A stretch of 61,265 nt of DNA, taken from the IMG/VR virus record IMGVR_UViG_3300032164_003159, positions 1 to 61,265 of that record. One strand, given 5' to 3'. Both the position numbers and the translations under genes were made by a program. This DNA comes from a virus (taxonomy: Duplodnaviria; Caudoviricetes). This document shows positions 21,216 to 60,896 of the stretch, one piece after another. The first letter of the stretch is position 1, and each line of letters starts with the position of its first letter. The notes below the pieces were generated by a model, which searched no databases, was not told the DNA's origin, and saw only the letters and a list, made by a program, of their open reading frames with translations.

Positions 21216-22415
21216 TTGAACCTCCCCCCAGCTAAAGCCGGTGGATTCCTGACGGAGTTACGCGACATCGCGGCTCCTCTCGTGGCTCGTTCCGAGCCCG
21301 GCAAGTAGCGTGTTACGAGCCGCGTTTACATCGCGGTCGTGCGTAGACCCACAATCCACACAGCGCCATTGCCTCACCGCAAGCTCGCTCAATCCTGTAG
21401 GACCAGAACGGCTCCCACAGTTCGAGCAAGTCATGGTGGTATTTCTGCTGTCTACGAGAACACATTTCCTACCATGATTATCACTCTTGTAGAAAACGAA
21501 GTTCCGTAGTTGGCTAATTCCTGCATCCCCAATTGACTTTCCAAACCGGCGCGCTTGTCCTTTGAGATTATCGTTTGTGATATAGAGTTCAGCATAATTC
21601 TGTACAAGATCTTTGGAGATTTTGTGGTTATAATCCTTTCTGCGATTGGCAATTTTTTCATGCAATCTGGCTGCTAACTTCTTCCTGTTTCCTCTCTGTG
21701 CTTGTGCTAATTTTTTCTGTCCTTTAATAAAGTTCCTTTGATTTTCATACTTGGTTCCATCACTAAGTACTGCTAAATGTTTGAAACCAGTATCAATACC
21801 AACCTTCTTGGTTGTTTCATAGACTTTGAAAGTGTGGTTAGCGTCCAGTATTAGTTGGAGATACCAACCGGATGCTTTCTTTACAATTCTTCCTCGCTTG
21901 ATTTTTCCTTTTGGAAGGTCTTGTTTGAAATACCGAATCCTTCCTAATCCTGGAAGATTGATCTTTCCGTTCTTGAACCGAGATACGGGGATAATATCTG
22001 GAAATTGGATGGATCGTAGTTTGTTGCGGATCCCTTTTAGTTTCGGTTTCCTTGCTAATTTCTTGAAGCAGCGTTTCCAAGAATTGTAAGCGCCCATCAG
22101 AGTTGCTTGAAGGGTATGGGAGGGAATCTCAAGTTTATCGGAATGATTAGAGCAAAGGTTACAAAAATCAAACGATGAAAAGTATAGTTTGTCTTTTGCA
22201 TTTAGTTCTATCTTCCTAATGCCAAAATTGTAAATACCTGTCAAAATCCACAACCACTCGTTTAGAGTAGATTCCAGTCTCTTTGCCGGTCTGAGTTTTA
22301 GTTCTCTTACTAACATTACAACTTTCTCATTCGCTTGACTACATGCCTAAAGGTAACGGTAGTTGACGGTATTATCCTACATTGGATCATACCAGAAGAA
22401 CTTGGATTATTTCAA
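21216..22415 (-). mobile_element. Non-autonomous IS200/IS605-family element (tnpB only)
   Basis: Right end GGAATCCACCGGCTTTAGCTGGGGGAGGTTCAA (typical hairpin plus TCAA) ending at 21216; left boundary approximate; no tnpA in the window. Confidence 0.7.
21258..22316 (-). CDS. tnpB: TnpB RNA-guided nuclease homolog
   Basis: N-terminal LKLRP HTH, RuvC-I VGIDTG, zinc finger CSNCG...CVDCG, RuvC-III DRDVNAARN. Confidence 0.92.
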   Translation of the reverse strand: MLVRELKLRPAKRLESTLNEWLWILTGIYNFGIRKIELNAKDKLYFSSFDFCNLCSNHSDKLEIPSHTLQATLMGAYNSWKRCFKKLARKPKLKGIRNKLRSIQFPDIIPVSRFKNGKINLPGLGRIRYFKQDLPKGKIKRGRIVKKASGWYLQLILDANHTFKVYETTKKVGIDTGFKHLAVLSDGTKYENQRNFIKGQKKLAQAQRGNRKKLAARLHEKIANRRKDYNHKISKDLVQNYAELYITNDNLKGQARRFGKSIGDAGISQLRNFVFYKSDNHGRKCVLVDSRNTTMTCSNCGSRSGPTGLSELAVRQWRCVDCGSTHDRDVNAARNTLLAGLGTSHERSRDVA

Positions 22416-22686: not shown

Positions 22687-23337
22687 TTACACATTCTTGA
22701 GATGCGCAAAGTCCCTGAACTTTAGCTTTGTAATGATGCGACCACCAGCGCGGCTAGCCATAAAGATCACTGGGCGCAGTACAATCCCCTCGGCCTGGAA
22801 TGGGTTAGTGGGGTTCCACTTTGAAAAGAACCCAGCCTTGACAAATTCTACGGCCTCTGGAATAGTTCCTATACCCATCACAGGCACAAAATCAATGCCC
22901 AGCTTCACAGCAATATCGACCACGTTTGGTTGTAGAAGCCACCAACGGCCAACACGAACGTCAAATAGTACAAAACTCGGATCGTCACGGTATTTCCCCC
23001 CTTTGTTAATCTTCGATCCGTAGCATTCTCCATAAAGAACTACCAAATTCTCTGGATTGTTTATATCTGGAGGAAATTGCGCCGCCAATTTCTCAGCAGG
23101 AAACATACCGCGCAATGTTTCAAGGGGGAAGGCAGGCATAACAGCCATGTCTGTCTTTCCTCCAAACTGCACGGTCTTGCCATCCCATATTACACGGCAA
23201 TTCATGCCGTCCACCTTCTCTGTCCACATCCATTGGTTGCCTGCTAGGTATTCGATTTCGGGGGTGGCGTACTGTCCTATAATAAAGTGTTTGTGCTCGT
23301 CCCGTTTGAATACTGAATTTATCTTCGGGTACTCCAT
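22687..23337 (-). CDS. ATP-dependent RNA ligase (Rnl2-like); start MEYPKI
   Basis: Motif I TEKVDGMN, LYGECYG, FVLFDV, EGIVLRP, KLK. Confidence 0.85.
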   Translation of the reverse strand: MEYPKINSVFKRDEHKHFIIGQYATPEIEYLAGNQWMWTEKVDGMNCRVIWDGKTVQFGGKTDMAVMPAFPLETLRGMFPAEKLAAQFPPDINNPENLVVLYGECYGSKINKGGKYRDDPSFVLFDVRVGRWWLLQPNVVDIAVKLGIDFVPVMGIGTIPEAVEFVKAGFFSKWNPTNPFQAEGIVLRPVIFMASRAGGRIITKLKFRDFAHLKNV

Positions 23338-23339
23338 GA

Positions 23340-23720
23340 CTAACAAGTTTCCTCCTTCCCTGCAGCGATCATTCCATCGACTAAGGATCGCAGCACTTTC
23401 CGTTCCCCAGTCTTGGCAAAGCCAGAGGCCCACAGTATAGCGATTAGTTCATTCACGCGCTTCTTGGTTTCCTTGGACAGTTCCCGCGTGTAGATCGCAT
23501 GCCCAACGTCCCGCGCCTCTTTCTTCGCACGCCTGACCCGACGCTTGTCCAGCACCTTCTGTGCCTTCACAGGAAGCGCTCCCTTGGCCTTGCGAGCCAT
23601 GGCTACCTCGACAGGGTCGTCCTCTGGCGGAGGGGTCTTGGGAGTAGGGAACACAGCAGGGGTTGTCTTACCGGTATTGTCGATAACATGAATCCGCTTC
23701 TCCGTCTTCGTTTCGGACAT
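23340..23720 (-). CDS. Basic hypothetical protein with its own promoter
   Basis: TTGACA-N17-TATATT promoter and GGGAGG RBS. Confidence 0.7.
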   Translation of the reverse strand: MSETKTEKRIHVIDNTGKTTPAVFPTPKTPPPEDDPVEVAMARKAKGALPVKAQKVLDKRRVRRAKKEARDVGHAIYTRELSKETKKRVNELIAILWASGFAKTGERKVLRSLVDGMIAAGKEETC

Positions 23721-23759: not shown

Positions 23760-24785
23760 TTAGTGTTTGTCAAGTATGGACTTTCGCAGCAGGTGTTGAT
23801 TACTGTGAATACCAATTCTACTGGAAAATTCATCGCTAGATATTTTTCTGCTGTCCATTTTCTTCAGCATGTCAAGTGTGCTTTCGAAATCATTTCCTAA
23901 GCACTTTACACTAATGACTAACTCAGCGAGAGCAGCGAATGACAATCCATCACTTCGCGCTACCCACTCTGCCAATTCCCCGCCATTTATTTTTAGCTTA
24001 GTGCTAAGATAAATTCTTCGTGTCTCCTTAGACGGTGGCTCTACCTTTATAACTCTGTCAAATCGTCTTGGGCGGGCCACCAATCTACGATCCAACCGCT
24101 CTGGATAATTAGTGGTGGCTATATTCAAAACTTTATCTATTTGATATTCACCATCGAGCAGTGCTAAAAGTTCATCGTCACCATGGTGTGATACAATTGC
24201 GTCGATATCCTCGAATATACATATGATGCGGCGGTCCCGCTCAATCTTACGAAATGTTACCAGCGCGTCTTTCAGGATGGACGGGTGTGCACATACCATT
24301 ACGATTCCGCCGGACATTACAATTTTATTAGAGACTAGTTGAACTACTGCTGTCTTACCCCCACCAGCAATACCATATAGTAAGTATCCTCTCCTGTGTA
24401 GAAATCCATAATCATGAAATATCTTCTCGCGTGTCCAAAAAGATTCAATCTCGTCACAGATTAGTTTTGGCAGGCCGTCTGGAAAATCTATGAGCGCGTC
24501 TACTTTGATGTCCATCTTTTCAAATCTAATTCCCTGTTGTGTTCGGTGTTGGTTGTACACGCCGGGTGGAAGTATTGGGATGGTTTGCCCAACTGCTAAA
24601 TATTCGTCATGGCCCGAGATAGCCCATTGGGTAAGCTGACTACCATACCCGCGTTCTTTAGACTCACAAGGATCGCATGGGGCTACTGATTCGCACTGTG
24701 CTTTAGAGGGCACTATGTTTTCGTTGCTATTTTTTTGGTCGGTTCCGAATTCATTAAGGGGATCGGACTTAGTCTCATCTGCCAT
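23760..24785 (-). CDS. AAA+ ATPase
   Basis: Walker A GYLLYGIAGGGKT, Walker B IFEDID, TTNYPERLD..L..RP.RFD. Confidence 0.9.
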   Translation of the reverse strand: MADETKSDPLNEFGTDQKNSNENIVPSKAQCESVAPCDPCESKERGYGSQLTQWAISGHDEYLAVGQTIPILPPGVYNQHRTQQGIRFEKMDIKVDALIDFPDGLPKLICDEIESFWTREKIFHDYGFLHRRGYLLYGIAGGGKTAVVQLVSNKIVMSGGIVMVCAHPSILKDALVTFRKIERDRRIICIFEDIDAIVSHHGDDELLALLDGEYQIDKVLNIATTNYPERLDRRLVARPRRFDRVIKVEPPSKETRRIYLSTKLKINGGELAEWVARSDGLSFAALAELVISVKCLGNDFESTLDMLKKMDSRKISSDEFSSRIGIHSNQHLLRKSILDKH

Positions 24786-24962: not shown

Positions 24963-25226
24963 TTAGTTGTTGGACTTTTTGTAACTAAAGATCTTGGCTT
25001 TGACCCCGATGAATGTTCCTACAGCATTTCCACAAGCGTATCCTAGAAGCAACCAGTAATCTTTTGTAGCGGTGTACTCACTTACAACAAGAATCGCCAT
25101 CAGGGAAATGATCAGAGAGAGGAAAGACGCCAGGCAGGGCCGGTTTGAAATAACGGACTTCTGATAATGAACTAGCAGAAAGTCCATTCCAAGACCAAGC
25201 GCGAAGTATAAAGCGAACGACAGCAT
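24963..25226 (-). CDS. Small membrane protein (about 3 TM)
   Basis: Hydrophobic helices; YACGNAVGTFIG. Confidence 0.65.
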   Translation of the reverse strand: MLSFALYFALGLGMDFLLVHYQKSVISNRPCLASFLSLIISLMAILVVSEYTATKDYWLLLGYACGNAVGTFIGVKAKIFSYKKSNN

Positions 25227-25292
25227 GTCCTACTCGCTTCAGCGGAGGTTCTTCTACAGGTGATGCGTCTTGTTCCTTGTCCATTTCAAAAC

Positions 25293-25796
25293 CCTTGCTA
25301 AGCCTTGCAACGCCCTGCCACGCCCTACCGTGCAACGCCCTGCCCAGCTACACCCAGCCGCGTACCGCCGCAAACACCTTTCAATCGACAATATTGCTAT
25401 GCCTTGCCCAGCCAGGCCGCGCTCTGCCACGCCCTGCCGCGCCGCTCCCAGCCCAGCGCACTTATAGTCTAACTTAGATTTACAGGATTGTAAACTGCTG
25501 TCAACAAACTAGCCTTGCCTAGCTATGCAGCGCCCAGCCCAGCCACGCAACGCCCTGCCACGCACGTCCGCGCATCGCCAAGCCTCGCCGCGTACACAGC
25601 GAACTACGAAAACTTGTAAAACAATCCTTGCCGCGCATAGCCGTGCCGCGCCGTACCCTGCCACGCCCAGCCGATCTTCGCCGGGTATTTATAGAACTAT
25701 ACATTTTATATTATAAAACGTTTGCCTTGCCGTGCTCTGCCCGGCCTCGCAATGCCGCGCCAGGCGCAGCCGGTCCGTGCCGTTCCTGGCATCGCC
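25293..25796 (-). repeat. Array of five (GGC-NN)n pentamer units with AT-rich linkers; candidate guide-RNA array
   Basis: Units 25722-25796 (15 pentamers), 25626-25682 (11), 25510-25589 (16), 25394-25458 (13), 25293-25369 (15). Strict 5-nt phase; each has NGCAAGG at or near its 3' end. Confidence 0.9.
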
Positions 25797-25801
25797 ACGA
25801 G

Positions 25802-26410
25802 CTAAGCCTTAAATTCCATTGACTTGAACTCTACCAACCGGAATTTTCCGAAGTGTGGACGGAACGTGCCAAGACCTACACAGAGCCCGCCTTCCTCGAA
25901 GATTCTCTTCAGGTCTTGTACTTCTAATTCCTTAGACGGCAGAACAATCAGGTGGAACGTTATCTCCCAAGGGGTAGGAAGCACAGGCCTGCTCTTAGGA
26001 TTTGGAATACCCTTGGGCAATCTAGCAACGGCATGATGAATATACATACCAGAGAGCGCATCCTTACCATCATCGTCGAACTTTCCAATCTTTATGGGCT
26101 TGCCCTTCTTAGTAAATACAATCTCATCCTCTTCGATAGTTACAGCAGTTGCGATGCTGCGGGCAACCTTCTTATACGTCCTTGAGTCGAATAGGATTTT
26201 CGTGGCGCTGGGCGTATTTTCTGCGGTTAGAAAGCTTGATATATTTGTCGATGGCAGAACGAGTGTTTTTCCGTCGGCGGCGAGATACATCTTTTCTTGT
26301 GGATTCAGTTCCGTCCTGTTTGACCCTGGATAGCGGTCGAACATTATCCCACGCATCCCAGTAATCCCCTGCAAGACAAGCTTGATCCGTGTCGGCTTTG
26401 AGATCGCCAT
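25802..26410 (-). CDS. Solo RAMP/Cas7-like protein
   Basis: N-terminal strand I.L.LQG...IMF, LVLPS.NI..FL, R P....W...F.L, and C-terminal glycine-rich loop GLGTFRPHFGKF typical of RAMP proteins. Confidence 0.7.
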   Translation of the reverse strand: MAISKPTRIKLVLQGITGMRGIMFDRYPGSNRTELNPQEKMYLAADGKTLVLPSTNISSFLTAENTPSATKILFDSRTYKKVARSIATAVTIEEDEIVFTKKGKPIKIGKFDDDGKDALSGMYIHHAVARLPKGIPNPKSRPVLPTPWEITFHLIVLPSKELEVQDLKRIFEEGGLCVGLGTFRPHFGKFRLVEFKSMEFKA

Positions 26411-26443: not shown

Positions 26444-27196
26444 CTAAATCTTTTCTACTGGTGCTACCTGAAATGGTTCGTGTACTAAAAGTTCTTGCCA
26501 TCTGTAGTCCTCCCTACTTTTTATGTCAAAGTAGAGGAACCCTACGTCTATAATACCTTGACAAATGCGTGTACCGAAATCGCTGCTAAGCTGGAGCCCC
26601 GGAGTAGTGAGTGCCAATCCGAAGCGGGTCTTGGCCATAACATGGTAATGCACGTGGCTACGAACAACCACATCAGCCTTTACATTTTCCTTTACACACG
26701 CTCCTAGGATAGTCCAAAGCTGTTCTCTTAGAAGCGCGGTGGCTCGCCCATGTGGAACAGTGGAGGAACTGATCTTGTGCCTGAAGTTGAACATGCAGCC
26801 ATTTACATCCAAGGACATCGCAAGATCGAATCTCGCGCCAAGGTAATCAGCCAGGATCTTTTCGAAGTTCTCTTCCTGGCCAGTGTGATATGGTGTGCCG
26901 GCTATTATATAAACTTTCTTGGCATCGAACTGGTTTATGCACTCCATCGCCATTCGAACCTGTTCCTCACGATCCGTAGTGATCAATTCGTTGCCACCGC
27001 TCTTTGGAGACTTCCCGTCAATCGCATCGCCATTGCACACTAATGCGTCAACCGGCCCGAGCGCCTTGGCCTGCTTCTCATACCATTTCCATAATTTCTT
27101 TTGTACTACGGTGGTTTGCCAGCCTTCTCTTGAAGGCGGAACCATGCCCAATTTGTGACCGCAATGCAAATCACTAATTATTACGAGTCTTTTCAT
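26444..27196 (-). CDS. Calcineurin-like metallophosphoesterase
   Basis: ISDLHCGH, NGDAIDG, GT.YH, SHVH. Confidence 0.8.
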   Translation of the reverse strand: MKRLVIISDLHCGHKLGMVPPSREGWQTTVVQKKLWKWYEKQAKALGPVDALVCNGDAIDGKSPKSGGNELITTDREEQVRMAMECINQFDAKKVYIIAGTPYHTGQEENFEKILADYLGARFDLAMSLDVNGCMFNFRHKISSSTVPHGRATALLREQLWTILGACVKENVKADVVVRSHVHYHVMAKTRFGLALTTPGLQLSSDFGTRICQGIIDVGFLYFDIKSREDYRWQELLVHEPFQVAPVEKI

Positions 27197-27565: not shown

Positions 27566-28231
27566 TTATGTTTTGTCGGCATCGGTCGGCTCCTTGATAG
27601 GTGTAGCAAGCGCCGGCACGAACTCAGCGTAACGCCCACCACCCATTGTAGCTAGCACTTTGGGATCAGTATGAACTGGGTTTCTAAAGCCCGGGGTCTT
27701 AGACCGCTCATTTAGTAGTTCGAGCACGCGCTCCTGTGTAATAGGAAGAAAATTAGTAACGTCCACGCCGACATTAAGAGAAATCCCAGAAAATATCCTA
27801 AGCTGGTGGATGTGCCCTGAGATTACAAAATCGAATCCGTCAACACTTATCTCGTTGGCTGAATCCTTAAACGGGTCATCAGAGCCCACCGGATAGATAG
27901 GCCTATGGTTCAACAAGCAGCGGTACGGACCGATGTTCGCTATCATCTGATTGCAGCAGAAGGGCATCCGCTTACGTGTGCGGCTGCTGTCGTGGTTGCC
28001 CGCAATAAGAATGATAGTACCCTGGAGATGCTTCAGGTATTGGTTCGGGTCATGGTTTCTTGTAAATGCGAAGTCTCCCATGTGTATAACAAGATCACTC
28101 TGCTTTACAACGGAATTCCAATTCTCAATTAAAGCCTTGTCCATTTCTTCTACTGTAGCAAAAGGGCGTTTGCAATATTCAATAATATTGACGTGCCCGA
28201 AATGGGAATCTGAAGTGTACCAGATAGTCAT
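27566..28231 (-). CDS. Calcineurin-like metallophosphoesterase
   Basis: TSDSHFGH, GDF, GNHD, GHIH, NVGVD. Confidence 0.88.
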   Translation of the reverse strand: MTIWYTSDSHFGHVNIIEYCKRPFATVEEMDKALIENWNSVVKQSDLVIHMGDFAFTRNHDPNQYLKHLQGTIILIAGNHDSSRTRKRMPFCCNQMIANIGPYRCLLNHRPIYPVGSDDPFKDSANEISVDGFDFVISGHIHQLRIFSGISLNVGVDVTNFLPITQERVLELLNERSKTPGFRNPVHTDPKVLATMGGGRYAEFVPALATPIKEPTDADKT

Positions 28232-33516: not shown

Positions 33517-33611
33517 AGTTGTACCAGTGTCTGCACGCACATTTGTGTATGTACAAGTTGTACCAGTGTCTGCACGCACATTTGTGTATGTACAAGTTGT
33601 ACCAGTGTCTG
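33517..33611. repeat. 39-bp tandem repeat (2.4 copies) inside ORF 33169-33639
   Basis: agttgtaccagtgtctgcacgcacatttgtgtatgtaca repeated; DTGTTCTYTNVRA in the protein. Confidence 0.9.
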
Positions 33612-33646: not shown

Positions 33647-34606
33647 TTATACTACGGTGGGTGACTTACCTATCGTCTCTTTTAGTTCCTGCGTCCAATT
33701 ACTTATTTCCTGTAGGCTGTTGCTTAACACTTCCTGGAACATTAACCTAGCTGCAGGTTCATCCTTAGCCTCACAAAGCAGCTGGTAACGCTCTTCATCC
33801 TCTATAATCGAATCTCCTATCCCGTGCCGTAGTTCATCTGGCGTATAACCCCAGCGTTTCACCACAGCCACAGCCTTGTCGTAGTCTATGACTACCGCTG
33901 GGACGGTATCCAGTCCAATCTGTTTGGCGGCGGCTAGGCGGTGGCTCCCTGTCCAAGCCTGGTATCCATCCTCGAAGGGCTCCACAAGCAAAGGGCGGCC
34001 TTCCCAGCCATGTTCCTGCATCTTCTGGGTGAGAGATGCTAGCTTCTCTTCATCCCTAACCTCGTGCAGCGGGTTCACGCGCTCTATCGGAAGCTCCACA
34101 ACAGCCTGGGTTGCCCGTCTGGCCGGTCCGAGCTTCTGTCGGAACTCTTCCCAACACTCTGGGGCCTTAAACGTCTCTCCATAGGTCTTGAACATGTCCA
34201 GGTTTTTATCTTCATCATCGACAAAAACCATTTCCGCATCACCGTATATCGGGAGAACTTGGTTCTTTAGTATACTTCTCTTCAGTGTGCGACTGTGCAT
34301 ATTGCTATCATTCGGGCGCATAAATAACTCATCTTCAGACGGCCGTATGCCATAATGTTCTTGAAGCCAGGCCGCAGTCGTTTCCCTGAGATGCTGTGGT
34401 CGCCCCGTTAGAAAGATTACTTTATCAAATTGTTCTACAAGACGAGGAAGCACATCTTGAGTTAATGGCAGCGGGGGATCTTGCGTAACGAGATCGTGAT
34501 CGAAGAACTTGTCCCATTCCGTTAGTGTCATCCTCCAATTACCGACGGCTGGTGCACGATGGGATGCATCAGCTAGCGTCCCATCGATATCAAGAACCAA
34601 GATCAT
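33647..34606 (-). CDS. HAD phosphatase (PNKP-like) fused to a ParB/Srx-like domain
   Basis: DIDGT, LTGR, MRP, VDD; C-terminal half PLLV...TGSHRLAAAKQIGLDTVPAVV. Confidence 0.8.
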   Translation of the reverse strand: MILVLDIDGTLADASHRAPAVGNWRMTLTEWDKFFDHDLVTQDPPLPLTQDVLPRLVEQFDKVIFLTGRPQHLRETTAAWLQEHYGIRPSEDELFMRPNDSNMHSRTLKRSILKNQVLPIYGDAEMVFVDDEDKNLDMFKTYGETFKAPECWEEFRQKLGPARRATQAVVELPIERVNPLHEVRDEEKLASLTQKMQEHGWEGRPLLVEPFEDGYQAWTGSHRLAAAKQIGLDTVPAVVIDYDKAVAVVKRWGYTPDELRHGIGDSIIEDEERYQLLCEAKDEPAARLMFQEVLSNSLQEISNWTQELKETIGKSPTVV

Positions 34607-51067: not shown

Positions 51068-51799
51068 TTACAGGTCAATGCACATATTTGGTATAAAGTC
51101 CTCGTTCACCGTTCTTCCTATATACCCAAGCGGATTGCACACTACATGGGTTTTGCCGATGAGGTAATTACAGCTTTTGTGCGTGTGCCCATGAACCCAA
51201 AGTTTAGGTTGGCGGAGATTGATCAGCTTTTCAATGTCACACACGAAGAAGATGTTAAGTCCGTCTACCTTATAGATTTCCGCCACGCTCTTGTTGGATG
51301 GCATATGATGGGTAATAACTACGGATTCTCTATTCACATGCCAATTTAGGAAGCGGCGTGCTTCTTTATTTTCTGCAAACACGCGCGGATGAAATCCGTA
51401 AATCATCTTGAAGTCAGCTAGGAGCGGAGCAAAAACTTGGTAATCCGTAACCTGCTTGAACCAGAGCGGGGATCCTACAAACTGAACTCCGCCAATTTCA
51501 ATCATTTCATTGTTCAGTAAGTGCGTATTCGTATGCCTGGCAAAGATCTCTTGCAATTTCTCATTGGCAGCGTCAAATGAGCTACCATAATAGTCGTGGT
51601 TTCCTGGAACGTAGAGTATTTGTGCTTGTGAGTAGCATGCGGAAAGCAACGCCACGGTCTGTGGAATTGTACTGAGCGTTCCGAGATCCCCGGCAATTGC
51701 CAGAATATCTACACCATCTGGCTTCAGGTAAGAAATAAACTTCTCCCCATAGTCCTTATGGAATTCGGTGTGGACATCAGATAGTATTTGAAGTCTCAT
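51068..51799 (-). CDS. Metallophosphoesterase
   Basis: LSDVHTEF, AGD, VPGNHDYY, ITHH.P, WVHGHTH. Confidence 0.88.
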   Translation of the reverse strand: MRLQILSDVHTEFHKDYGEKFISYLKPDGVDILAIAGDLGTLSTIPQTVALLSACYSQAQILYVPGNHDYYGSSFDAANEKLQEIFARHTNTHLLNNEMIEIGGVQFVGSPLWFKQVTDYQVFAPLLADFKMIYGFHPRVFAENKEARRFLNWHVNRESVVITHHMPSNKSVAEIYKVDGLNIFFVCDIEKLINLRQPKLWVHGHTHKSCNYLIGKTHVVCNPLGYIGRTVNEDFIPNMCIDL

Positions 51800-55839: not shown

Positions 55840-56235
55840 CTACCTCTCTTGGATTAACTTGAAGATCCCACTAGCAAATGCTCTCGGATGTAGTGGCTTA
55901 TGAAACCATGCACTGGCTCCGTGCTTCATGCTTTCGTATTCTAATCCAATACCCTGTATCGCGGAAATTACAACGATAGGAACGGCGAACTGCGGGAACT
56001 TCTTTCTTATCTCTTTTATTAGGGTCCAACCATCTAAACGGGCCATAAGTATATCTGTAATTATGAGTTCAAAATTGTGCTCTTCTATAAGGTTCAAAGC
56101 GACAACCGGGTCGGCAACAATGGTTATATCAAGCGACCACGTAGATTTATATTGTGTTTCCTTATATTTAGTAAGAATGTCCTTGATCATCTCAAGCATA
56201 AGTTCCTGATCATCTATTACCAGAACTCTAGCCAT
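55840..56235 (-). CDS. Stand-alone response-regulator receiver
   Basis: RVLVIDD, IITDILM..LDG, VISA, GA..W..KP. Confidence 0.85.
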   Translation of the reverse strand: MARVLVIDDQELMLEMIKDILTKYKETQYKSTWSLDITIVADPVVALNLIEEHNFELIITDILMARLDGWTLIKEIRKKFPQFAVPIVVISAIQGIGLEYESMKHGASAWFHKPLHPRAFASGIFKLIQER

Positions 56236-57373
56236 GGCAATCACCAAAGAAATGTCTATTACCTTTCCAAAATTCCTTATACTGTCTGTGCAATGTACTA
56301 GGAAGATGCGGATCTTCCTTATAACGTTCATAATATTCTCTTATGTTCTTAATTCCTAGTTCATGTACTGCGATCATAGCGTCTACAAAACCATAAAGAT
56401 TAAGATCTTTCTTAAATAAAGAAGGGCTTTTCAACCGATTGCATATTGGGCAGCCACACTTCTTTGTTAACTGCCCTAGTCTTTTCCATATACGTCTACA
56501 CGACAGACATTTATACCAATAATGGGTAGCAGAATTAATCCATTGTTTACAAAATTTTGTTCCTTGTTTTATACCCAAAAACTCTAAATTTTGTTTTCCA
56601 GCGTCCTCTTCTGCCAAGCGTATTTCGTCATACGTATGGTAATCTGCGAATACCTTGCTTGCACTTAGGGTAACATTAGGAATGTATCCTAGTTGTTTCT
56701 TTATTCTCTTAATTACATGATCTAGCTTTTGCTTATTTGTATTATTTGGATTAAAATAACGTATCTTTATTAATTTTATCCCTTGTTCTTTACATAATCT
56801 ACATTTTATTCTATCGTTCTTTTGTATATAGGAAACATCTGAAGATCTTGGATTTTTTAGATTCAAGTTTCTATAATGCTGCGGACCTTGGTATTCAAAC
56901 GCTACTTTCAAATCTGCATTGTAACCGTCTAACTCCAACGGTTTACCGGTCTTTTTATTGAATAAAAAACTCGGATGAACAGTATGAAAACGGGCATTAA
57001 ATAAACCTTCAAATATCTTCCTTACGATTTCCTCACTTTTGTGTTTCCTATTACTACACCGTTTGCACCAACGATTATGATGCATAACGTTAGTAGGATA
57101 ACAATTCCATACATGCCCATTTTTACATTCTACCAAGACAGGAACACGCGTACCTTTATACTTTCCGAGAACGTGCCCGCCGAAACTTGAAACAAGTTTA
57201 TTAAATATCGTAGGAAGAGTCTTGACGTATATAGTAACATTATTGTAGCTAAGGATCTTATAAAGGGTACCAGCACCTATTTTGAAATGCCGGTATGTGG
57301 CACTGCTAGAATGTGTAGATTTGTAATAATCACAAATCTCTTTTTGTAATGTTTGAGATAAATAAATAGCCAT
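56228..57373 (-). CDS. Zinc-ribbon plus PD-(D/E)xK endonuclease (homing-endonuclease-like), AT-rich
   Basis: C..GH.W...WC..C, LELDGYN..LKVAFEYQG.QHY; C-terminal Y..RYKEDP.LPS repeat unit. Confidence 0.7.
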   Translation of the reverse strand: MAIYLSQTLQKEICDYYKSTHSSSATYRHFKIGAGTLYKILSYNNVTIYVKTLPTIFNKLVSSFGGHVLGKYKGTRVPVLVECKNGHVWNCYPTNVMHHNRWCKRCSNRKHKSEEIVRKIFEGLFNARFHTVHPSFLFNKKTGKPLELDGYNADLKVAFEYQGPQHYRNLNLKNPRSSDVSYIQKNDRIKCRLCKEQGIKLIKIRYFNPNNTNKQKLDHVIKRIKKQLGYIPNVTLSASKVFADYHTYDEIRLAEEDAGKQNLEFLGIKQGTKFCKQWINSATHYWYKCLSCRRIWKRLGQLTKKCGCPICNRLKSPSLFKKDLNLYGFVDAMIAVHELGIKNIREYYERYKEDPHLPSTLHRQYKEFWKGNRHFFGDCHG

Positions 57374-58164: not shown

Positions 58165-58989
58165 TTATACCGCAGGGGTTGGGTCGTTGCATTGCCTACA
58201 TTCCAGCAGGCGCGCATTGGCTAGTTTCTCAAGCTTTACAATACGCTCCAAGAGATAATCGACCTTGAATTGCAGCAGGCCGTGGTAAAGTTCGATCTTT
58301 TCACGCAACTTCTGTAGTTCAGCGATTCTGATGTTTATCGCATTCCGTCGATTAGTTTTAAACTCGGTTACATCTCGATATATTTCATCCAAGCGCGCAT
58401 CCACAGCAGTATGTAATCCTTTATAAATTGGAAGCGTCGTAGCTTCAGAATCGATTTGTGGCATAGCATAGAAATTGCACCCGATGGGAAGTGCAATGAC
58501 TAATGCTTGGATCTTAACAAGGCGATCTGCGAACAAGAATGGGACAAAATCAATAAGATATGGATCTTGAATTCGCACAGGGGATAGCTGTGACAGTAGA
58601 CTAGAAAGCATTTGATTAAGCTGGATCGGTGTAAGTTCTTCTCTATGTGCACAATATGTATCAGCTACCTGTTTTACAATTGAGTGGTCCATATCATTGG
58701 AAAATATTTCTCCCGTAGCATTATTCAATGCCACAGTAACTGACATGTTTGGATCTGCTACGGCAAATTTGTATTGCCCAGAAGACTTCTTTATCTTCCA
58801 AATTTCCTTACCTGTTTTGGCGCTTACTTCGCGAATAGCCTGAAGGAATATCTGGCAATTTACGGCGCTGGGAAGTTTATAACCTATTTTGAATTTCTCC
58901 AATAGTTTAAACACTTCTGTGCGCGTGACCCGGGGCGTTCCCATAGTCCACCAGCAAAGATAACCAATAATTGTGTGTCGATCAGACAT
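58165..58989 (-). CDS. Hypothetical protein (DUF6744-like)
   Basis: G.L.WW N-terminus; helical C-terminus. Confidence 0.45.
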   Translation of the reverse strand: MSDRHTIIGYLCWWTMGTPRVTRTEVFKLLEKFKIGYKLPSAVNCQIFLQAIREVSAKTGKEIWKIKKSSGQYKFAVADPNMSVTVALNNATGEIFSNDMDHSIVKQVADTYCAHREELTPIQLNQMLSSLLSQLSPVRIQDPYLIDFVPFLFADRLVKIQALVIALPIGCNFYAMPQIDSEATTLPIYKGLHTAVDARLDEIYRDVTEFKTNRRNAINIRIAELQKLREKIELYHGLLQFKVDYLLERIVKLEKLANARLLECRQCNDPTPAV

Positions 58990-60896
58990 TAGTTCAGCGC
59001 CTTTAGCCGCTTGAGTGAAAATTCCACCAGATCGAAGAATTCCTTTTCACCAAGTACCTGCGTTCCATAAGTTCTAGCCTTCTGTGCTTTGCCTGATGCC
59101 GAATTCTTGTTAGCCTGGACCAAATAGGTTAGTCCACGGCTCACACTGGACTTTACTTCACCACCAAGCGATTCCACGAGTTTGAATGCATCTCCGCGCT
59201 TGATCGAAATCTCACCGGTAAAGCAGAAGCTTTTTCCAGTAAGCTTGCCAATGATCTTTCTCTTAATGTTTACGCCGTTGGCAAGCAGTCTCTGAATCAA
59301 ATCCCTTTTCTTCTGCAGTCCAGTGGCAGCCGCTTTAGCCGTAATCTCACCGATTCCACTGATTACTGCAAACTCGTGCCAATCCGCTGCTTGCATCTTC
59401 TGCAATGTATCAAACCCGGCCTTGTCAAAAGCCTCAAACGTGGAGTTTCCGGCGTTAGGAATGTTCAACGCGGCCAGGAATTTGGGAAGCGGAAGCTCCC
59501 TTGACTTGTTAATGTTTTTGACCAGCGTCTTAGCACTGCTAGATCCATAGCCTGGAAGTGTGCTAATCGTGGTTTCCGAAAGAATATAAAGATCTGCCGG
59601 ATCCTTAATGAATCCCGCCTTGATAGCGGAAATTACAAATGCTTCTCCGGCCTGATCGATGTCCAGAACATTTATCCACTTGAGAATGTCACCCTTGGTC
59701 TTTGCGGGGCATACCGGATTTTTACAAACCAGATACTCTCCGTCGAATCCTACCTTATCAGAGCAAACGGGGCATGTCATTGGGTGTGCCGCAAGCGCGC
59801 CCACGTGCGGATTCAAAACCTGTTCCACATATGGGATTACATCGTTTCTTCTGCTAACCAAAACTTCTGCGTTCATCCAAATTCCAAGTTTCTTCATATT
59901 ACTGAAATTGTGCAAGCTGGCCCGCGAAACAGTTACTCCACCAATCTGAACCGGCTTCAGAATAGCTACCGGTGTGATCCTTCCAGTAAGACCAACGTCC
60001 CATTCGATTGCTAGAAGCTTGGTCTTCCGCATTTCAGCAGAGAATTTCCAAGCGATCTGTCCCTTGGGCCTTCCATCTGTTTCGCCCAACGCGTCTTGCG
60101 CTGCGAGATCATTAACCTTTATTACAAGACCGTCGATCTCGTAATCCAATTCGGCGCGATGTTTACTCTGATAATGATCAAACCACTTGATCGCATTGTC
60201 CAGTCCCGCTACCCTGGTTGGGACGCACTGCAACTTTAGCTGGTTTTCCATGAATCTAATCTTGTGGTGCTCCCTCTCAAATGAAAGTGCGTCGGTGATA
60301 CAGTCATAGTGAATTACCTGCATGGTAGGAACGGCTTTATGCACATCTTTCCTACGCATAATACCGGCAGCAGCGTTCCGGGGATTTTTGTATTCACCTT
60401 TGTCCAATTTATCAAATGCACTCTTACTGAAAAGGATCTCCCCACGAAGTGATCCGGTAAAGTCACCAAGCCTGGCTGGAACATTTTGCATTTTAGAAAC
60501 GGTGTGGGTAACATCCTCCCCCTCATCTCCGTCCCCACGTGTAATGGCTTTGTCCAACTTGCCTTTCTTATACAGAATCTCGACGGACGCGCCATCAAGC
60601 TTTTCTTGAACTACAAACTTATCTGATTTTGTCTTCTTGACCCAGGCCTCGAATTCGTCCTGGGAATTTACCTTATCCTGCGAGCCCATTGGTATGTCAT
60701 GTTTGACCTTTTGAAGTTGATTGTCCTTCGGGGCAGCCCCAACCTTAGTTAGCACGGGATTCTTGGGGTCCAGATCGCGCAGTTCATCAGCCTGGGCGTC
60801 GTACTCAGCATCCGACATGATCGGACTGCCATCGTAGTAAGCATCCTGGGCTTCCGTCAGGGTTTTCTCTAGTTCCACGATTCTTGCTTTGTCCAT
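58989..60896 (-). CDS. ligA: NAD-dependent DNA ligase
   Basis: AYY...P.MSDAEYD, EKLDG, TRGDG..GED, RGE, NPRNAAAG, DGLVIK, zinc finger, HhH, BRCT (FCFTG). Confidence 0.97.
   Translation of the reverse strand: MDKARIVELEKTLTEAQDAYYDGSPIMSDAEYDAQADELRDLDPKNPVLTKVGAAPKDNQLQKVKHDIPMGSQDKVNSQDEFEAWVKKTKSDKFVVQEKLDGASVEILYKKGKLDKAITRGDGDEGEDVTHTVSKMQNVPARLGDFTGSLRGEILFSKSAFDKLDKGEYKNPRNAAAGIMRRKDVHKAVPTMQVIHYDCITDALSFEREHHKIRFMENQLKLQCVPTRVAGLDNAIKWFDHYQSKHRAELDYEIDGLVIKVNDLAAQDALGETDGRPKGQIAWKFSAEMRKTKLLAIEWDVGLTGRITPVAILKPVQIGGVTVSRASLHNFSNMKKLGIWMNAEVLVSRRNDVIPYVEQVLNPHVGALAAHPMTCPVCSDKVGFDGEYLVCKNPVCPAKTKGDILKWINVLDIDQAGEAFVISAIKAGFIKDPADLYILSETTISTLPGYGSSSAKTLVKNINKSRELPLPKFLAALNIPNAGNSTFEAFDKAGFDTLQKMQAADWHEFAVISGIGEITAKAAATGLQKKRDLIQRLLANGVNIKRKIIGKLTGKSFCFTGEISIKRGDAFKLVESLGGEVKSSVSRGLTYLVQANKNSASGKAQKARTYGTQVLGEKEFFDLVEFSLKRLKALN

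Follow-up and report, generated by a model that had tools for sequence, protein, structure and literature searches.

A probable VIPR locus with one vipr gene and five vrRNA genes in a Caudoviricetes sequence from IMG/VR

The 61,265 nucleotides (nt) of IMG/VR record IMGVR_UViG_3300032164_003159 (Duplodnaviria; Caudoviricetes), referred to here as the window, very probably carry a genuine VIPR system, composed of a gene for Vipr, a protein of the RAMP family, and five vrRNA genes that follow it on the minus strand. VIPR, or Viral Interference Programmable Repeat, was first described in 2026 from Escherichia phage SUSP1 and a Pseudomonas fulva prophage (type II) in bioRxiv preprints with Doudna among the authors, and has been proposed as the ancestor of CRISPR RAMP proteins and as a programmable DNA binder of very small size (10.64898/2026.04.26.720920; 10.64898/2026.04.26.720927; 10.64898/2026.10.15.759431). 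Since the class is already in print, the locus defines no new class and adds a member to a known one. The original prediction, made from the letters of the sequence, had named a RAMP-like gene beside an array of GGC-NN units and had suggested that a phage system called VIPR might be of the same kind. This suggestion proved sound, since the published system has the same architecture and the Vipr protein of SUSP1 was the only match to our family profile among solved structures.

Five tracts of GGY-NN pentamers downstream of vipr

Vipr has been described as a phage-borne RAMP of ~20 kDa, and vrRNAs as RNAs of ~100 nt with 9-16 YNNGG repeats (10.64898/2026.04.26.720920), called from tandem YNNGG units with at least 4 per call and typically 9-16 (10.64898/2026.04.26.720920; 10.64898/2026.10.15.759431). 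To delimit such units in the window, we used a pentamer-phase scan that required at least 8 in-phase units, each with at least two of three matches to G-G-Y, and at least half of them perfect. Exactly five tracts were found in the 61,265 bases, all within 25290-25796 of the minus strand, and parsing into units placed the protein gene and the five vrRNA genes as follows.

25802..26410, minus strand, vipr: 202-residue RAMP-family protein (P0001) with the G-loop GLGTFRPHFGKF and a thumb hairpin with invariant R141-P142
25722..25796, minus strand, vrRNA gene 1: 15 GGY-NN units, the last GGCAA GGCAA; begins 5 nt past the vipr stop
25628..25682, minus strand, vrRNA gene 2: 11 units, ending in GGCAA and then GG; the first two (GGCGA AGATC) are less certain
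25510..25589, minus strand, vrRNA gene 3: 16 units, ending in GGCAA GGCTA
25394..25458, minus strand, vrRNA gene 4: 13 units, ending in GGCAA GGCAT AGCAA
25295..25369, minus strand, vrRNA gene 5: 15 units, GGCGG TACGC ... TGCAA GGCTT AGCAA, then GGGTTTTG
25722-25796, 25618-25672, 25505-25589, 25394-25458 and 25290-25359, minus strand: the same five tracts as called by the pentamer-phase scan

Chance origin of the five tracts is excluded. At the 8-unit threshold, an average of 0.02 tracts was seen in shuffled windows (n = 50) and none in shuffles of the 507-nt array region (n = 500); when the threshold was lowered to 5 units, where shuffles contained about one tract per window, no extra tract appeared in the window. 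Base autocorrelation in the array region was 0.43, 0.46 and 0.42 at lags 5, 10 and 15, compared with 0.24-0.29 at other lags and ~0.25 across the window. The stop codon of vipr (TAG, 25802-25804) is followed on the minus strand by CTCGT and then by tract 1. The 202-residue open reading frame (ORF), its C-terminal GLGTFRPHFGKF motif and the 5-nt gap had all been predicted exactly, and the string given for the first unit matches tract 1 (25796-25722, 15 pentamers) letter for letter. The parse also agrees with the predicted five units of 11-16 pentamers, the parsed counts being 15, 11, 16, 13 and 15 for tracts 1-5. The AT-rich linkers, which had been put at roughly 25-50 nt, span 24-51 nt (39, 38, 51 and 24 nt in order), with GC fractions of 0.21-0.42 against 0.68-0.75 inside the tracts. 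Among the 70 scan-called pentamers, G occupies position 1 in 53 (the others having T in 9, A in 6 and C in 2) and position 2 in 68, C occupies position 3 in 59, and all four bases occur at positions 4-5.

All five tracts end with a bias to GGCAA or GGCGA units, as those of the family do, and apart from the constant GGCAA units and a U-rich stretch they share no 3' feature. No Rfam family, ribozyme or hammerhead was matched. One promoter-like site stands in the linker ahead of vrRNA gene 4.

25466..25494, minus strand, promoter-like site: TTTACA, 17 nt, TAGACT

A second such site sits within the 3' end of vipr, and two other AT-rich linkers contain TTTA(C/T)A motifs. Three promoter-like sites in 1.5 kb are not significant alone (1.3 ± 1.2 in shuffles), and a terminator scan of the region gave nothing beyond shuffles. 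Two small minus-strand ORFs lie at the downstream edge: one of 85 residues (25078-25335) begins within tract 5 and has an ATG at ~25284, and one of 87 residues (24963-25226) that is membrane-like, with a sub-threshold DUF5698 match, overlaps the first in another frame. In contigs from four other sediment DNA runs, 32 of the 40 listed variant positions fall within the array (25290-25796). These variants were not used as a sign of NN turnover; at 80% likeness the arrays of other phages cross-map, giving depth spikes and loose ends.

The same arrangement recurs throughout the relatives of P0001, as had been anticipated for homologs of the gene. IMG/VR stretches that encode a Vipr relative numbered 254, and among the best 80, which were examined, same-strand GGY-NN tracts lay within 1.5 kb of the gene in 79 (56 downstream, 60 upstream, many both). 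An opposite-strand tract was seen in 2 of the 80 loci and a distant same-strand tract in 4, and the array of the single miss (L034) is degenerate by eye. Tracts also accompany the gene in all 19 loci from GTDB genomes, whose hosts include Planctomycetota, Methylococcaceae, Burkholderiales and Desulfovibrio. They are present as well in Burkholderia phage vB_E436, where the gene is annotated 'hypothetical protein' and which was the single match when P0001 was searched by tblastn against 50,697 isolated phage records. The linkage holds across proteins ~40-60% identical and is near-obligate in the family.

The family logo from 3,797 pentamers reads G 0.94, G 0.96, C 0.89 (C+T 0.95), followed by two variable positions at which all 16 dinucleotides occur. 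Family tracts have 8-20 units (mode 13), with linkers of 15 to ~60 nt that contain hairpins in some relatives. The final three or four units of a tract favour GGCAA/GGCGA: AA occupies the NN positions of the second-last unit in 94 of 190 tracts and of the third-last in 91, compared with 13% in the interior. In five IMG/VR loci (L075, L055, L074, L062 and L021), unbroken tracts of 41-89 pentamers stand beside Vipr homologs of the same clade; these far exceed one vrRNA of 9-16 units and may be the 'staggered' overlapping arrays mentioned in 10.64898/2026.04.26.720920.

These data bear on the idea that the repeats are unrelated to the protein and represent a GC-rich minisatellite, a G-quadruplex region or a recombination hotspot that lies by chance beside a RAMP-like gene. 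GG at every fifth nucleotide could in principle, we infer, form two-tier G-quadruplexes, and Tandem Repeats Finder barely scored the tracts. However, all 19 genome loci and 79 of the 80 viral loci combine the gene with same-strand tracts at the protein divergence given above, positions 1-3 are conserved and positions 4-5 variable over the 3,797 units, and experiments tie the same repeat to the same protein family (10.64898/2026.04.26.720920; 10.64898/2026.04.26.720927). An unrelated repeat is scarcely credible on this evidence and is already close to refuted.

The Vipr protein and its family

The identification of the array as vrRNA genes is matched by the predicted structure of the protein encoded beside it. 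An AlphaFold2 model of P0001, built from the family alignment (predicted local distance difference test, pLDDT, 95.9; predicted template-modelling score, pTM, 0.89), contains beta-alpha-beta elements, a thumb hairpin at residues 123-144 and a G-loop at residues 178-189. Foldseek returned 52 matches at E ≤ 0.001 in a copy of the PDB that ends 2026-04-08, and the SUSP1 Vipr structure was absent from these matches. Csm3/Cas7 backbone subunits from type III complexes occupied all the top ranks (best E 4.6e-6, probability 1.00, TM scores 0.43-0.54), further effector chains of type III systems (Cas7-11, Cmr, type III-D) appeared from rank 25 on, and the three best BFVD matches were viral RAMP-like proteins. 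The model places P0001 in the RNA recognition motif (RRM)-based RAMP/Cas7 fold, with a glycine-rich loop and a thumb, which is the fold that the original prediction had proposed from the glycine loop.

By sequence, P0001 matches the unnamed family phrog_4652 at 7.3e-9, and no match was found among Pfam, NCBIfam or PADLOC families. A set of 5.8 billion proteins contained 68 homologs of near-equal length, without functional names, and a profile of 61 of them reached 1,102 clusters of 50% identity at E ≤ 0.001. Of the 80 ORFs that make up the Vipr cluster, spread over 71 loci, 11 fall outside the matched gene; some IMG/VR loci thus seem to carry, within 4 kb, a further copy of vipr or a fragment of one. 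The SUSP1 Vipr (36pp, 202 residues) was matched by P0001 alone at E 0.02 and by the 61-member profile at E 1.1e-7 (36pp_D, 'SUSP1 Vipr protein', profile positions 139-192), and it was the only match to the profile at E ≤ 1 among 177,635 distinct solved-structure sequences. Cryo-EM of SUSP1 Vipr has identified the residues that hold the GGY motif (10.64898/2026.04.26.720927). In this alignment, two arginines among them, R138 and R179, fall on the family-invariant R141 and R184, and W178 falls on F183, where the family has F or W. D177 falls on T182, an invariant threonine in the clade, and the further SUSP1 contacts H17, K33, E71 and M72 lie outside the sequence alignment with P0001.

Predicted mode of action, target searches and the neighbouring metallophosphoesterase

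In the published systems, one Vipr protomer binds each GGY and the NN dinucleotides form a discontinuous guide (10.64898/2026.04.26.720920; 10.64898/2026.04.26.720927), an organization that supports the earlier proposal of one subunit per GGC with NN as guide. The GGY bases flip into protein pockets (10.64898/2026.04.26.720927), NN pairs with DNA in which every third base of the target strand is skipped, and the complex, once bound, transcriptionally silences competing satellites and prophages (10.64898/2026.04.26.720920; 10.64898/2026.04.26.720927). By homology with SUSP1, Vipr protomers of the window would polymerise along each vrRNA, one per pentamer, with each GGC sequestered between the G-loop and thumb of adjacent protomers and the NN dinucleotides presented. 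The concatenated NN pairs would then pair with double-stranded DNA, the target strand skipping one base per unit (xNN, usually in codon register), and the bound filament would block transcription of the target, for which the likeliest candidate would be a gene from a competitor in the same host, be it another phage, a satellite or a prophage. Filament formation, targeting of DNA over RNA, the 1-nt skip and silencing are all inferred from the literature, and our confidence in DNA silencing under this rule is lower than in the identification as VIPR, because the mechanism is borrowed from a distant relative.

Targets were sought under the published 1-nt skip rule, and the searches of sequence collections used exact seeds of 8-10 units, which miss targets with scattered mismatches, so that absence of targets is not thereby shown. 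Within this scope, no natural target above chance was found in the window, related loci, IMG/VR, JGI metagenomes or GTDB genomes. On both strands of the window, which covers 61 kb of a contig that extends to 199 kb elsewhere, the best alignments of the five guides reached 16-20 matches, compared with 17-23 for shuffled-guide controls, in agreement with the absence of self-targets reported for other VIPRs (10.64898/2026.04.26.720920); skip-3 matches in the window are the guides themselves. The five guides against 99 related loci (906 kb) remained at control level, and when 258 guides from related loci were compared with the window, 3 windows reached 0.8, compared with 4 in shuffled controls. 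In IMG/VR, the 9-unit seed of vrRNA 1 (vr1) gave 0 matches, the seeds of vr2, vr4 and vr5 gave 8, 8 and 14 matches with extensions at chance, and the 8-unit seed of vr3 gave 5. The best of these five, in L103, scores 25 of 32 (for the extension, p ~0.0075 by a binomial estimate, before correction for the 5 matches), but it lies in GT-rich DNA of low complexity, upstream of a gene for a DnaQ-like exonuclease, and was not accepted as a target of vr3. JGI metagenomes gave 0 matches for vr1 and 2 for vr4, with chance-level extension, and GTDB genomes gave 1 for vr1 (1 of 10 extension matches), 0 for vr3 and 0 for vr5.

The lack of targets, together with the looser consensus of the window, raises the question of whether the array is a decaying or decoy copy, in which the protein is intact and some or all of the five RNAs are non-functional guides or protein sponges. 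Position 1 is T, A or C in 17 of the 70 units, and 11 of the 70 are without a pyrimidine at position 3 or a G at position 2, compared with family conservation of 0.94, 0.96 and 0.95 (C+T) at positions 1-3; in addition, solo vrRNAs that serve as redirecting decoys have been described (10.64898/2026.10.15.759431). Yet the 5-nt phase is strictly maintained through the 11-16 units of every tract, all five retain the family GGCAA 3' end, functional types with the relaxed consensuses NNNGG, YNNNG and NNNNG have been reported (10.64898/2026.04.26.720920), and missing targets are to be expected for an uncultured sediment phage. We consider decay or decoy function very improbable; the looser position 1 may be tolerated, or some units may be weak.

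The gene upstream of vipr is the window's only neighbour that is shared with other vipr loci.

26444..27196, minus strand, metallophosphoesterase gene: 33 nt upstream of vipr; Pfam Metallophos E 3.1e-4

The earlier statement that no nuclease partner is recognizable nearby held for cas genes and overlooked this gene, whose product has a fold of the superfamily that includes Mre11. Its DxH, GD, H and HxH motifs do not vary among 7 aligned homologs, and its predicted fold (pLDDT 76.8) matches Vps29, Mre11, GpdQ and Rv0805 equally well. The gene adjoins vipr in 10 of 81 loci; the 9 others, which represent ~6 distinct contexts (L011, L012/L015, L023, L033/L035, L037 and L059/L063), have homologs 38-45% identical on either side of vipr, with the rest of the neighbourhood not shared with the window. 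Among the 81 vipr loci no conserved neighbour family was found, the commonest unrelated one being present in 13. Conversely, among 80 IMG/VR loci with a metallophosphoesterase homolog, Vipr was present in 15 and Vipr or tracts in 17, a co-occurrence far above the background frequency of vipr. An optional accessory gene and a preferred insertion site in one phage lineage fit these counts equally well. The main text of 10.64898/2026.04.26.720920 does not mention a metallophosphoesterase. In two of the homolog loci (L148 and L166), six same-strand GGY-NN tracts surround the metallophosphoesterase gene, and no Vipr was found within 3 kb by the family profile (E ≤ 1e-5, ORFs of at least 80 residues); these arrays may consist of solo vrRNAs or may be accompanied by a divergent Vipr.

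Two further readings involve this gene. In the first, Vipr and its vrRNAs are genuine but act on RNA or destroy their target here, with the adjacent metallophosphoesterase as nuclease effector. Such activity would be in keeping with the closest solved folds, which are Csm3 of RNA-targeting type III complexes, with the retention of all catalytic motifs in an enzyme whose fold superfamily includes Mre11, with its place beside vipr, on either side, in 10 of 81 vipr loci whose gene contexts are otherwise unrelated, and with the predicted nucleases or helicases encoded by VIPR types III-V (10.64898/2026.04.26.720920). However, 63 of the 80 loci with a phosphoesterase homolog are without Vipr and tracts and 71 of the 81 vipr loci are without the phosphoesterase, which argues that the enzyme is not a dedicated partner; its fold fits Vps29/YfcE-type phosphodiesterases as well as Mre11, and the only VIPRs tested bind DNA (10.64898/2026.04.26.720920; 10.64898/2026.04.26.720927). 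We judge an RNA-acting or target-destroying system to be improbable. In the second, the clade would be a distinct variant in which the GGCAA units, in place of an RNA pseudoknot, form a 3' cap bound by Vipr, and the metallophosphoesterase serves as an optional effector or RNA-end processor. If so, the enzyme would turn silencing into cleavage or mature the five vrRNAs from one transcript; we regard this variant as unlikely, and put it forward tentatively.

Phage setting and comparison with known systems

The vipr locus is surrounded by phage genes in a PHROGs scan, and nearly all genes of the window lie on the minus strand. The phage occurs in sediment metagenomes, no RNA run was found to contain it, and megablast of 4 kb against the 50,697 isolated phage records gave no match. 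The identical Vipr protein is encoded on a contig of 199,096 bp, a length that points to a jumbo phage; the carrier is an uncultured phage of sediment, and probably a jumbo phage. The locus extends VIPR to such a phage, far from the E. coli and Pseudomonas models. Other features of the window are listed here.

22687-23433, 33647-34606, 27566-28231, 51068-51799 and 58989-60896, all minus strand: RNA/DNA end-repair set (RNA ligase, polynucleotide kinase, two further phosphoesterases and NAD-dependent DNA ligase)
528-1337: sigma factor
56228-57373: HNH homing endonuclease
21258-22316, minus strand: TnpB-type gene, 352 residues (OrfB_IS605 2.3e-12; Cas12f1-like TNB 2.3e-19; phrog_506 transposase 4.1e-75)
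23760-24785, minus strand: AAA ATPase with weak likeness to anti-phage IetA/IteA (PADLOC IetA 1.3e-8; NCBIfam IteA 1.5e-4)

The TnpB-type gene, a relative of the IS200/IS605-family RNA-guided nucleases, lies ~3 kb downstream of the array, and the AAA ATPase gene lies ~500 nt downstream and is not conserved beside vipr elsewhere. A helicase gene is also encoded in the window. A perfect 39-nt tandem repeat (33517-33611, 2.4 copies, score 190) lies in the gap that directly precedes the polynucleotide-kinase/ParB-like gene (33647-34606).

Published VIPRs comprise seven types with six vap accessory genes, in a list of 667 systems; a two-gene operon with vap is typical but not universal, and stand-alone vipr genes also occur (10.64898/2026.04.26.720920). 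The locus of the window resembles that of SUSP1 in having a stand-alone RAMP of about 200 residues (202 in both), in the alignment of G-loop and thumb motifs, and in same-strand GGY-NN arrays of 9-16 units that flank the gene, with several vrRNAs in a row downstream. Both are phage-borne, without a CRISPR array or cas genes and without a self-target.

Several points weigh against the identification, and most are departures from SUSP1. The sequence match to SUSP1 Vipr is confined to the C-terminal ~54 residues, from thumb to G-loop, and the remaining relation of P0001 to it rests on the modelled fold. The aspartate of SUSP1 that contacts G1 (D177), whose alanine mutant is inactive (10.64898/2026.04.26.720927), is replaced by threonine in P0001 and clade-wide. 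A vap1-like neighbour is not conserved in this clade, and no conserved vap gene was found beside vipr among the 81 loci. Repeat position 1 is looser, with G in 53 of 70 units compared with 0.94 in the family, and some units may be poor binders, or part of the array may have decayed. In place of the pseudoknot tail of the SUSP1 clade, the units end in 2-4 near-constant GGCAA/GGCGA repeats plus the U-rich stretch, and no structured 3' tail was detected in the five units (fold z-scores -2.4, +0.9, -0.1, +0.3 and -2.7). The failure to find a natural target belongs here as well. We nevertheless maintain that a genuine VIPR system is very probable, in a clade that is large (1,102 clusters of 50% identity and 254 IMG/VR stretches) and whose differences in G-loop, 3' end and neighbours are variants for probing the requirements of the GGY pocket and the tail.

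The second known relation is with class 1 CRISPR-Cas. As the original prediction had noted, CRISPR repeats and cas genes are missing: the 61 kb contain neither a CRISPR-type repeat nor a CRISPR array, and scans of 101 window ORFs (PHROGs) and of the 7 neighbouring ORFs (Pfam) revealed no cas family, leaving a locus that, in contrast to class 1 systems, is without CRISPR repeats, Cas5, Cas6, Cas10 and Cas1/2. The Cas7/Csm3 subunits of those systems share with Vipr the RRM-based RAMP fold, the glycine-rich loop and the thumb hairpin (Foldseek probability 1.00), and P0001 is only 9-17% identical to them in structural alignments. Both kinds of protein polymerise along a guide RNA at a fixed step, as described for Vipr in 10.64898/2026.04.26.720927. 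The step of Vipr is 5 nt, not 6, and its guide, in contrast to that of Cas7/Csm3, is discontinuous, with 2 of each 5 RNA bases pairing with 2 of each 3 DNA bases.

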